From contig NIVC01001006.1 of NCBI GenBank assembly GCA_002269645.1, positions 62,001 to 126,000 of the forward strand: a DNA stretch of 64,000 nt, in the 5' to 3' direction. This DNA is from Macrostomum lignano (lineage: Eukaryota). Under the pieces are notes generated by a model. That model was given only the letters and a program-made list of their open reading frames with translations. It did no database searches and was not told the origin of the DNA. The translations under genes were made by a program, and so were the position numbers. Position 1 is the stretch's first letter; each line of letters begins with the position of its first letter. Positions 8,528-10,300 of this stretch are shown here, piece after piece.

Positions 8528-10300
8528 TTTGCTAGTTGGCGTAGGAAACTTTTTCACTTTATCCACGTTGTCTGGGTCCGGTGAAATTCCTTTGGCTGTC
8601 ACCTGATGTCCCAGGTAACGCACGTTGTCTCGGAAGAATTTGCATTTAGTTGGTTGTAGCTTCAGACCTTGACGTTGTATAAGCGCGAGGGCCTTCTCCG
8701 TCGCTTCATAGAGTCGTTCGAAGTCTTCTCCGTAGGCCAAGATGTCGTCAACATAGTGCAACAGGTTCGTGCATCCTGCAAGCATGTATGCTGTTAGTCG
8801 GCTCATCGTTGCTGGGCTGTTGCTGAGTCCCATCGGCGATCGATTGTACTCGTATACTTGTCCATTGTAGGTTTTGAAAGCCGTGTACTGTCGTGACTCT
8901 TTCTCGATTTCAATTTGCCAAAATCCATGACGTAGGTCGAACACTGTGAACAATTTTGCCGTGTTGAGCTTTGCTAGTAGTTCGGAGATCTTCGGTAGGC
9001 TTTGCTGATCCGTCGGTATGTACTTGTTCAGCAGTCTGAAGTCACATACGAGTCGTCTTTCGTTAGTCTCCTTCTTTTGCACCAAGAGACATGGTGATGA
9101 GTATGCTGAAATGGCTTTGCTGATGATGCCGTGTTTCAGCATTTTGTCGATAATCTCATCGAAGTGCTGTTGCAGATGCTTGGCGATCGGGTACGGTTTG
9201 CACTGAATTGGTTCCGTGTGCGGCAGAAGTTTGATTTCCTGTTTGATGTCCTTGGCTCGTCCGATGTCGTAGTCATGGTGGCAGAAAGCGTCGTTGTACT
9301 TCCACAACAGCTGTCGAACTTTCCTCTTTTGCTGTTCCGTAATCGGGCTGTCATCCAAATTGATCTTCTTTTGAAATTCTTCCTCTGTTAGTCGTGGAGT
9401 CGCTTGCTCAATCAGCATAACCGATGCTTGGGTGTTGAGATGACCGATGCACATTCCTTGTCGTAGATGAACCGTTTCTGTGTTCGGGTTGAATATTTGT
9501 ACTGGCAGCTGTTTATCTTTTGCAACCAGTACTAGTGCCGTAGGCATCATAATTTGGTGTTTAGCCGTGACTCTTCTGTTTGGGTCGAATATCATTGCTT
9601 CCTCCGTTGCGTTAGTTGCCTTTGCCTTTATCCAGCAGGCGCTCTCCGGTTGGATGATGACATCTTGTTGCAATGTTACTTTTGGTAGTACTCGGATCTG
9701 GTTGATCAATGGTTGTTCTACCGAGTCGATCTTAAACGTTTGCTTATTGAAGTCGAAGGTCAATGGTAGTCTAAGCTGCTTGAACGTGTCGATGCCAACA
9801 ATAACGTCCTGGTTTGGGAGTCTGTCGATGACGTACGATGGAACTGTCAAATGTTTATTAGCGATTCTTAAATCAATGTCGGCTTTTCCCAGAATGTTTA
9901 GCGAATGTCCTCCTGCTCCTGCAACTGCGATTGTTGCTGGCCGTAGAGCAAGTCGTAGCTTGTTGCACAGTTGTTTTGATATAACTGTGATGGAGCTGCC
10001 GGAATCGAGTAGCGCTCGACATGGTAGATTGTTGATTACCACTTGAGCCATGGCTTTGCCAATTTCGGCGTGTAGAGTACATACGTAGTTCTCTGGCCAT
10101 TTTGGGTCTTGCTGTTCTGCTTGATAGTTAGGTGGTTGTATTCTTGGTGCCGTTGGTGTTGTCGGAATCGATGGATATAGCCGCGTTGCTAGTGTCGGTT
10201 GCCCTTGAACCTCACGATGTGCAGTTTCTGTTAGTTCTAAACTGTTGTCGCCTTCCGTTGTCGTTCTTTGCATTATGGCATTCACTGTCTTCTTAGCTTT
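8528..10300 (-). CDS. pol: Cytoplasmic tail with late-domain motifs, aspartic protease and reverse transcriptase
   Basis: LLDSGSSIT protease motif; RT motifs RRLVCDFRLLN, FDLRHGFWQI, YNRSPMGL, YVDD, YLGH. Confidence 0.95.

Follow-up and report, generated by a model that had tools for sequence, protein, structure and literature searches.

Ty3/gypsy elements with an env occur widely among animals. Outside Drosophila the question is how, or whether, they leave cells, and the passages of PMC13524379 that treat the subject call the transmission mechanism elusive. A locus of the flatworm Macrostomum lignano raises this question in concrete form. In the 64,000 nucleotides analysed (the whole stretch is called the window below), an LTR retrotransposon encodes three late-domain motifs within 19 residues, between the membrane anchor of its Env and its protease. 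Do these motifs serve the release of an enveloped particle from the cell?

This young LTR retrotransposon belongs to Ty3/gypsy and has a single Gag-Env-Pol frame and an Env of the herpes-gB type. Its parts are located in the window as follows.

4925..15623, minus strand: whole LTR retrotransposon in gag-env-pol order, delimited by its LTRs and a target duplication
4921-4924 and 15624-15627: 4-bp target duplication flanking the element
14548..15623, minus strand: 5' LTR, 1,076 bp, TG...CA, identical to the 3' LTR
14534..14545, minus strand: primer-binding site (PBS), a 12-mer the same, by eye, as that of a Macrostomum lignano gB-type errantivirus in part of the PMC13524379 supplement
13107..13853, minus strand: Gag up to its knuckle, with a MARRN start and without an N-terminal glycine
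13107-13148, minus strand: single CCHC knuckle at the end of Gag (zf-CCHC, E 0.03, weak)
12120..12176, minus strand: TM1, predicted from hydropathy, an internal signal/anchor helix before the Env ectodomain and behind a long acidic spacer
10393..12119, minus strand: Env ectodomain, a gB-type (class III) fusogen by profile (alignment A1) and by the structure model of a natural copy, L009
11184-11195, minus strand: RRRR furin-type site in the Env ectodomain
10336..10392, minus strand: TM2, the Env membrane anchor
10166..10180, minus strand: LYPSI, a hydrophobic-YPx[LI] pattern of the ALIX late-domain type
10145..10156, minus strand: PTAP, a late-domain pattern of the TSG101 type
10124..10135, minus strand: PPNY, a PPxY pattern of the NEDD4-family WW type
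10094..10099, minus strand: conserved Trp-Pro, a candidate for the N-terminal cut of the protease, 31 residues ahead of the catalytic Asp
6546..10093, minus strand: Pol, with aspartyl protease, RT, RNase H and integrase (domain order by Pfam)
about 10004, minus strand: DSG of the protease
6222..6431, minus strand: accessory RING-like ORF behind pol, 70 aa in the window copy
4925..6000, minus strand: 3' LTR, 1,076 bp

The encoded chain is ordered as Gag, acidic spacer, TM1, gB-type ectodomain, TM2, a tail of about 75 aa with the motifs, and protease-RT-RNase H-integrase. A cut by signal peptidase may follow TM1, judging by eye. The identity of the two LTRs indicates a very recent insertion, which interrupts a host exon of a reprolysin/ADAM-type metalloprotease (about 4850-4924 and 15624-15856, plus strand; Reprolysin_2, E 5e-9) just ahead of the HExxH zinc motif.

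The LTRs, the target duplication, the PBS, the order of Pol, the location of Env between Gag and Pol and its gB type are together those of the GAG-ENV-POL errantiviruses with an HSV/gB-type Env. Such elements have been reported in Nematoda, Bryozoa and Platyhelminthes (Chary and Hayashi, eLife, PMC13524379, in sections citing Sacco et al. 2022), and the same paper lists a Macrostomum lignano member, Mlig_errantivirus_2. As far as those sections describe them, these elements share with the window element the gene order, a gB-type Env between two hydrophobic helices, LTRs and many near-identical copies. A particular likeness to Mlig_errantivirus_2 is suggested by the Env type, the PBS 12-mer and the Macrostomum lignano label of a 97% identical UniRef protein.

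The profile of the ectodomain (A1, 43 relatives) matches herpes gB in the PDB with E 5e-14, and a single-sequence search of the PDB gave no match. The ectodomain model, with a pLDDT of 80.6, is matched to gB by Foldseek (E 2e-21) at a whole-chain TM-score of only 0.26. According to the profile and the model, the ectodomain would retain the full gB-type fold together with a furin-type site, and this fits an infectious particle. In the P0006 family and in L115-L128, an insertion of about 180-260 residues divides the match to the Env profile.

The translation of window positions 10180..10124 on the minus strand is LYPSIPTTPTAPRIQPPNY, in whose 19 residues LYPSI, PTAP and PPNY are all found, confirming what the preliminary description of this DNA had reported. 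All three belong to late-domain motif classes (P[T/S]AP, YPXnL or PPxY), the YP motif having Ile in place of Leu. Each pattern occurs once in a natural polyprotein copy of 2,480 aa, always within the one 19-mer. Their placement after TM2 and ahead of the protease also holds, and Gag (13107..13853) has 0 occurrences of the three pattern classes. The same description had judged the triple unlikely to arise by chance, and this agrees with the shuffles: none of 300,000 permutations of the 95-aa linker contains all three motifs (the product of the single rates is 4e-6), and even the proline-rich 19-mer, shuffled by itself, regains them at a rate of 2e-5. No second cluster of the three exists in a six-frame translation of the window (127,996 residues).

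The same description had assumed that the tail is continuous with TM2, and had inferred that the sequence directly after the anchor, in the pol frame, is functional. In the window copy the continuity is lost. Its frame is broken near 11.3, 10.83, 10.30 and 8.53 kb, the first two breaks lying in the Env ectodomain and the last in Pol, and the one at about 10.30 kb separates the frame of the motifs, which is that of the protease (8360-10597), from the frame of TM2 (10336-10392). In most copies of the family the continuity is present. From 79 candidate copies, 40 were scored (94-100% alike) and 30 fetched; TM2 and the motifs share one stop-free frame in 19 of these 30, the remaining 11 including the window copy, and the identical 19-mer is present in 28. 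The earlier interpretation is supported in each part open to computation. In the protein search, 12 of 90 matches lie inside open frames of 2,370-2,538 codons, and at the 10.30 kb break contigs from all four public runs depart from the window just as most copies do; these contigs are of guessed or unknown kind and uninformative on transcription or splicing. By these results the family encodes one Gag-Env-Pol chain. A programmed frameshift between TM2 and the tail is ruled out by the 19 copies that read through. One gene model of the family, P0003, lacks the motif stretch, and none of the joints listed for the public-run contigs skips it (four more joints stand beyond those listed). The motifs lie about 50-70 residues past TM2, and the two hydrophobic helices would place them on the cytosolic side.

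Are the motifs maintained where the surrounding sequence varies? In copies about 90% alike, YPSI and PTAP are unchanged and the PPxY reads PPIY, PPGY or PPTY; over the family of the window element the two prolines and the tyrosine are fixed and x is N, T, I or G. A haplotype tally agrees with this; its copies were chosen by a YPSIP anchor, so that YPSIP is invariant there by construction and its invariance was left uncounted. Ten related families were recovered from the same genome, whose linkers between TM2 and the protease are 13-56% alike; they fall into about four related groups, and shuffle P values therefore overstate their independence. P[ST]AP is present in eight of the ten families (0.26 expected) and hydrophobic-YPx[LIMV] in seven (0.11 expected), whereas PPxY occurs in one (0.62 expected) and is not enriched. 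The conservation that the preliminary description had proposed to examine is thus found for P[ST]AP and YPx[LI] and fails for PPxY across families; the combination of LYPSI, PTAP and PPxY is particular to the family of the window element. Family E has none of the three in its tail.

The arrangement of the motifs also varies. YP precedes PTAP in the family of the window element and follows it in the five other families with both, and the distances from the catalytic Asp shift between families, with YP at 38 to 58 residues. Conservation on a variable background, independent of position, as expected of late domains, is accordingly seen for P[ST]AP and YPx[LI], and for PPxY only within the family of the window element. 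All seven YP dipeptides in the family tails have the full pattern, other YP numbering 0 against 2.8 expected, and plain Yxx-hydrophobic occurs 4 times against 3.4 expected. This constant completeness of the YP pattern, with Yxx-hydrophobic unenriched, speaks for the ALIX type rather than a signal for endocytosis, although in six of the seven families the motif closes with Ile instead of the textbook Leu. AP-2-type signals, either Yxx-hydrophobic or di-leucine, were considered and set aside, not being enriched in the tails. Trp-Pro is found 31-38 residues before the catalytic Asp in nine of the ten families, and it is likely to mark the start of the protease, as a processing site. In the env-less stretches of the same genome the motifs are present in 0 of 5 (five distinct stretches from 30 loci plus L114). 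On the Gag side, a long way upstream of Env, an additional PPxY, PSAP or YPxV is present in some sister families (L061, L065, L117, P0006).

Among 1.84 billion representatives searched, 93 were hits, and to these the genome families and pol hits were added. After the removal of eight redundant rows (P0001, P0003, P0004, P0097, P0098, P0101, P0102 and P0105), 48 non-redundant linkers between the Env TM and the protease were available. They contain P[ST]AP 9 times (0.55 expected), the YPxL type 12 times (0.56 expected) and PPxY 6 times (1.33 expected). The excess is also seen in the 40 linkers not named as Macrostomum lignano, with PTAP at 3 vs 0.35, the YPxL type at 6 vs 0.53 and PPxY at 5 vs 0.96; any motif is present in 12 of these 40 (1.84 expected) and none in 28. 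Eight of nine decoy motifs are unenriched in the 40 outside linkers, a Trp-Pro decoy alone being raised (2 vs 0.28), and Trp-Pro itself is found in 17 of them against 5.1 expected. Among env-less polyproteins (61, collapsed to 48), a motif precedes the protease in two (Fisher p 0.001). Each of the two is N-truncated, and the linker of one is that of an env-bearing Macrostomum lignano family.

The Gag regions of env-bearing elements are not enriched for the motifs (2 of 27, 1.4 expected). In their spacer from the NC knuckle to the signal the motifs are weakly in excess (3 of 27 vs 0.96, P 0.06), which indicates that the tail is not the sole place of the motifs. In a quick tree of 47 rows with long branches, motifs are carried by 6 of 7 rows of the host clade, 9 of 14 rows of a second clade, one long-branch row and 2 of 25 rows of a third clade. 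Seven members of this motif-poor clade are labelled as nematode proteins, among the 30 proteins looked up. As most of that clade and 28 of the 40 outside linkers are without motifs, the Gag-Env-Pol layout can evidently persist in their absence. In several gag-env-pol relatives (P0017, P0020, P0027, P0028, P0031, P0034, P0050 and P0085), at least two tandem protease-like domains follow the Env anchor.

From these comparisons, the 19-mer is probably an ESCRT late-domain cassette on the cytosolic tail of Env, a docking site of the p6/p12 kind within a Gag-Env-Pol polyprotein that would recruit ESCRT to free an enveloped particle. By the usual topology of membrane proteins, TM1 would thread Env into the lumen and TM2 would return the chain to the cytosol, so that Gag and the tail with Pol would both be held on the cytosolic face. 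By analogy with viral late domains, PTAP would recruit TSG101 (ESCRT-I), YPx[LI] would recruit ALIX and, in the family of the window element, PPxY would recruit a NEDD4-type ligase. ESCRT-III would then sever the enveloped particle, either from the plasma membrane or into endosomes. Afterwards the protease would probably release itself at the conserved Trp-Pro, the cassette remaining on Env. As Gag lacks both an N-terminal glycine and a late domain, membrane anchoring would fall to TM1 and the role of p6/p12 to the Env tail.

The putative partners are encoded by the host. Its genome has a TSG101 UEV domain (E 1e-44 to human TSG101) with two positions around the presumed PTAP groove unlike the human ones, a point against the proposed docking, and an ALIX V domain (E 1e-14) that keeps the EGxKFY stretch, which we take to be its binding pocket. 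WW domains are located upstream of HECT domains in four host gene groups. TSG101, ALIX and WW-HECT proteins are universal in animals, so their presence removes an objection and adds little support.

Sorting signals are normally located on the tails of membrane proteins, and the motifs have exactly this seat. They could accordingly bind ESCRT and NEDD4 proteins as cargo-sorting signals that send Env-Pol to multivesicular bodies without budding of the viral type, either to degrade the surplus from a 1:1:1 polyprotein or for an exosome-like export. Every conservation result fits this equally well, as endosomal sorting would use the same motifs, and ZAM particles take an endosome/exosome route according to part of a review (PMC3383448). 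We regard sorting as unlikely nevertheless: an Env ectodomain with the full gB-type fold and a furin-type site would suit an infectious particle, di-leucine and plain tyrosine signals are unenriched, and it is for viral budding that passages of PMC8402826 describe PTAP combined with YPxL. An origin of the cassette as an old p6-like spacer of Gag, with env inserted upstream and the place on the tail a historical accident, would be compatible with a budding function, as it concerns descent. Lentiviral p6 lies just before the protease, which is the parallel in its favour; it is given a very slight probability, env-less relatives having no motifs before the protease apart from the two truncated cases in 48 (0 of 5 in the same genome), controls that are not proven sister lineages.

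The other two alternatives deny the motifs a part in ESCRT recruitment. Retroviral proteases cleave aromatic-Pro bonds, and YP could have been kept as such a cut site for the protease of the element, the remainder being a proline-rich spacer. The conserved Trp-Pro nearby (nine of ten families, 17 of 40 other linkers) indicates that sites of this kind are under selection. This same Trp-Pro, near-fixed at 31-38 residues from the Asp, already explains protease release, whereas YP floats between 38 and 58; P[ST]AP in eight families and the fixed [LI] three places after the Tyr would be left without explanation, and both roles can coexist. A cut site as the whole account is consequently held to be improbable. 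Chance matches in a proline/threonine-rich linker, common to the copies by recent descent only, would agree with family copies that are 94-100% alike, with proline-rich tails and with PPxY, which taken alone is unenriched over the ten families (1 vs 0.62). Composition-preserving shuffles and decoys oppose this, as does the fact that families with linkers 15-37% alike retain the motifs with their order swapped; we find it very improbable, and for P[ST]AP and YPx[LI] chance is largely refuted already.

Late domains are position-independent and exchangeable and fall into three classes (PMC8402826, in the sections on this subject). The same sections report PSAP, LYPAL and PPPY in MA/p12 of MLV Gag, PTAP and YPXnL in HIV-1 p6, and a late domain in EIAV p9. 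As in these retroviral Gag proteins, the three classes are clustered in the window element, and their number and order vary between relatives. The retroviral motifs are located on a soluble Gag made apart from Env, whereas those of the window element follow the Env anchor on its predicted cytosolic face, within the fused Gag-Env-Pol chain of an invertebrate Ty3/gypsy element. For the Drosophila errantiviruses, the relevant part of a 2012 review (PMC3383448) states that ESCRT use was not known and mentions an EIAV-like tyrosine motif in gypsy Gag. Gypsy and ZAM, as presented there, resemble the window element as env-bearing Ty3/gypsy elements with an unmyristoylated Gag; they differ from it in their gag-pol-env order, their F-type Env and the location of the motif in Gag.

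The main text of PMC13524379 makes no mention of late domain, ESCRT, budding, PTAP, cytoplasmic tail or RING, and in the parts consulted neither the tail cassette nor the RING-like ORF of the window element is described. In the parts of PMC12801592 consulted, the LTR elements of Macrostomum lignano are classified without mention of Gag or of a polyprotein layout. In the literature searched, Sacco et al. 2022 lying outside its reach, no paper was found that reports late domains on an Env tail in elements of this type. The element is of a known kind and the motif classes are known; what appears undescribed is that they sit on the tail of Env in a fused chain and are kept and reshuffled across deep clades. 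On balance, we lean towards the design being new among searchable papers on reverse-transcribing elements: a single polyprotein threaded through the membrane, whose Env signal helix would replace the matrix anchor and whose Env tail would replace p6/p12, with a cassette that would recur and be reshuffled in at least two deep clades.

If the cassette does act in this way, it would constitute sequence evidence for the ESCRT-mediated enveloped release of flatworm and related invertebrate elements, and it would show a way for the functions of retroviral matrix and p6 to be taken over by a fused Gag-Env-Pol chain. The conserved, order-swapping cassette names the host factors, in a young family (identical LTRs) and in an animal suited to the knock-down of host genes. 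Lineages that share the Gag-Env-Pol layout differ in whether they carry it.

The accessory ORF behind pol is cysteine-rich and RING-like (zf-RING_2, E 1e-4, below the cut-off). It has 70 aa in the window, 209 aa in another copy and about 200-217 aa in several copies and two sister families (L071:9270-9896, L061, L062, L065); its first Atlas match (0.91) is to a RING cluster, but the recognition is below the threshold. Families C and D have an unrelated ORF of 254-260 aa at its place. The arenavirus Z protein is small and has a RING and, at its N-terminus, a glycine (PMC3509680, in part), and in these traits, as given there, the ORF resembles it, a resemblance only. Unlike Z, it lacks a late domain and has the glycine only in the family of the window element, not in two sister families. 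A myristoylated matrix role like that of Z was rejected on this absence of the glycine from the sister families.

Elsewhere in the window, two arrays of 23-bp tandem repeats, of about 50 and 163 copies, occupy 20133-25412, and short telomere-type TTAGGG runs are located at 19227, 26528 and 38145-46973, several of them about 1.2 kb apart inside a larger repeat unit. ORFs at 29756-33855 (minus strand) resemble by eye what we take to be a Helitron Rep/Pif1-type helicase, an open frame of 1,454 codons spans 50354-54715 (minus strand), and an exon at 61144-61821 (plus strand) presumably belongs, again by eye, to a glycyl-tRNA synthetase.
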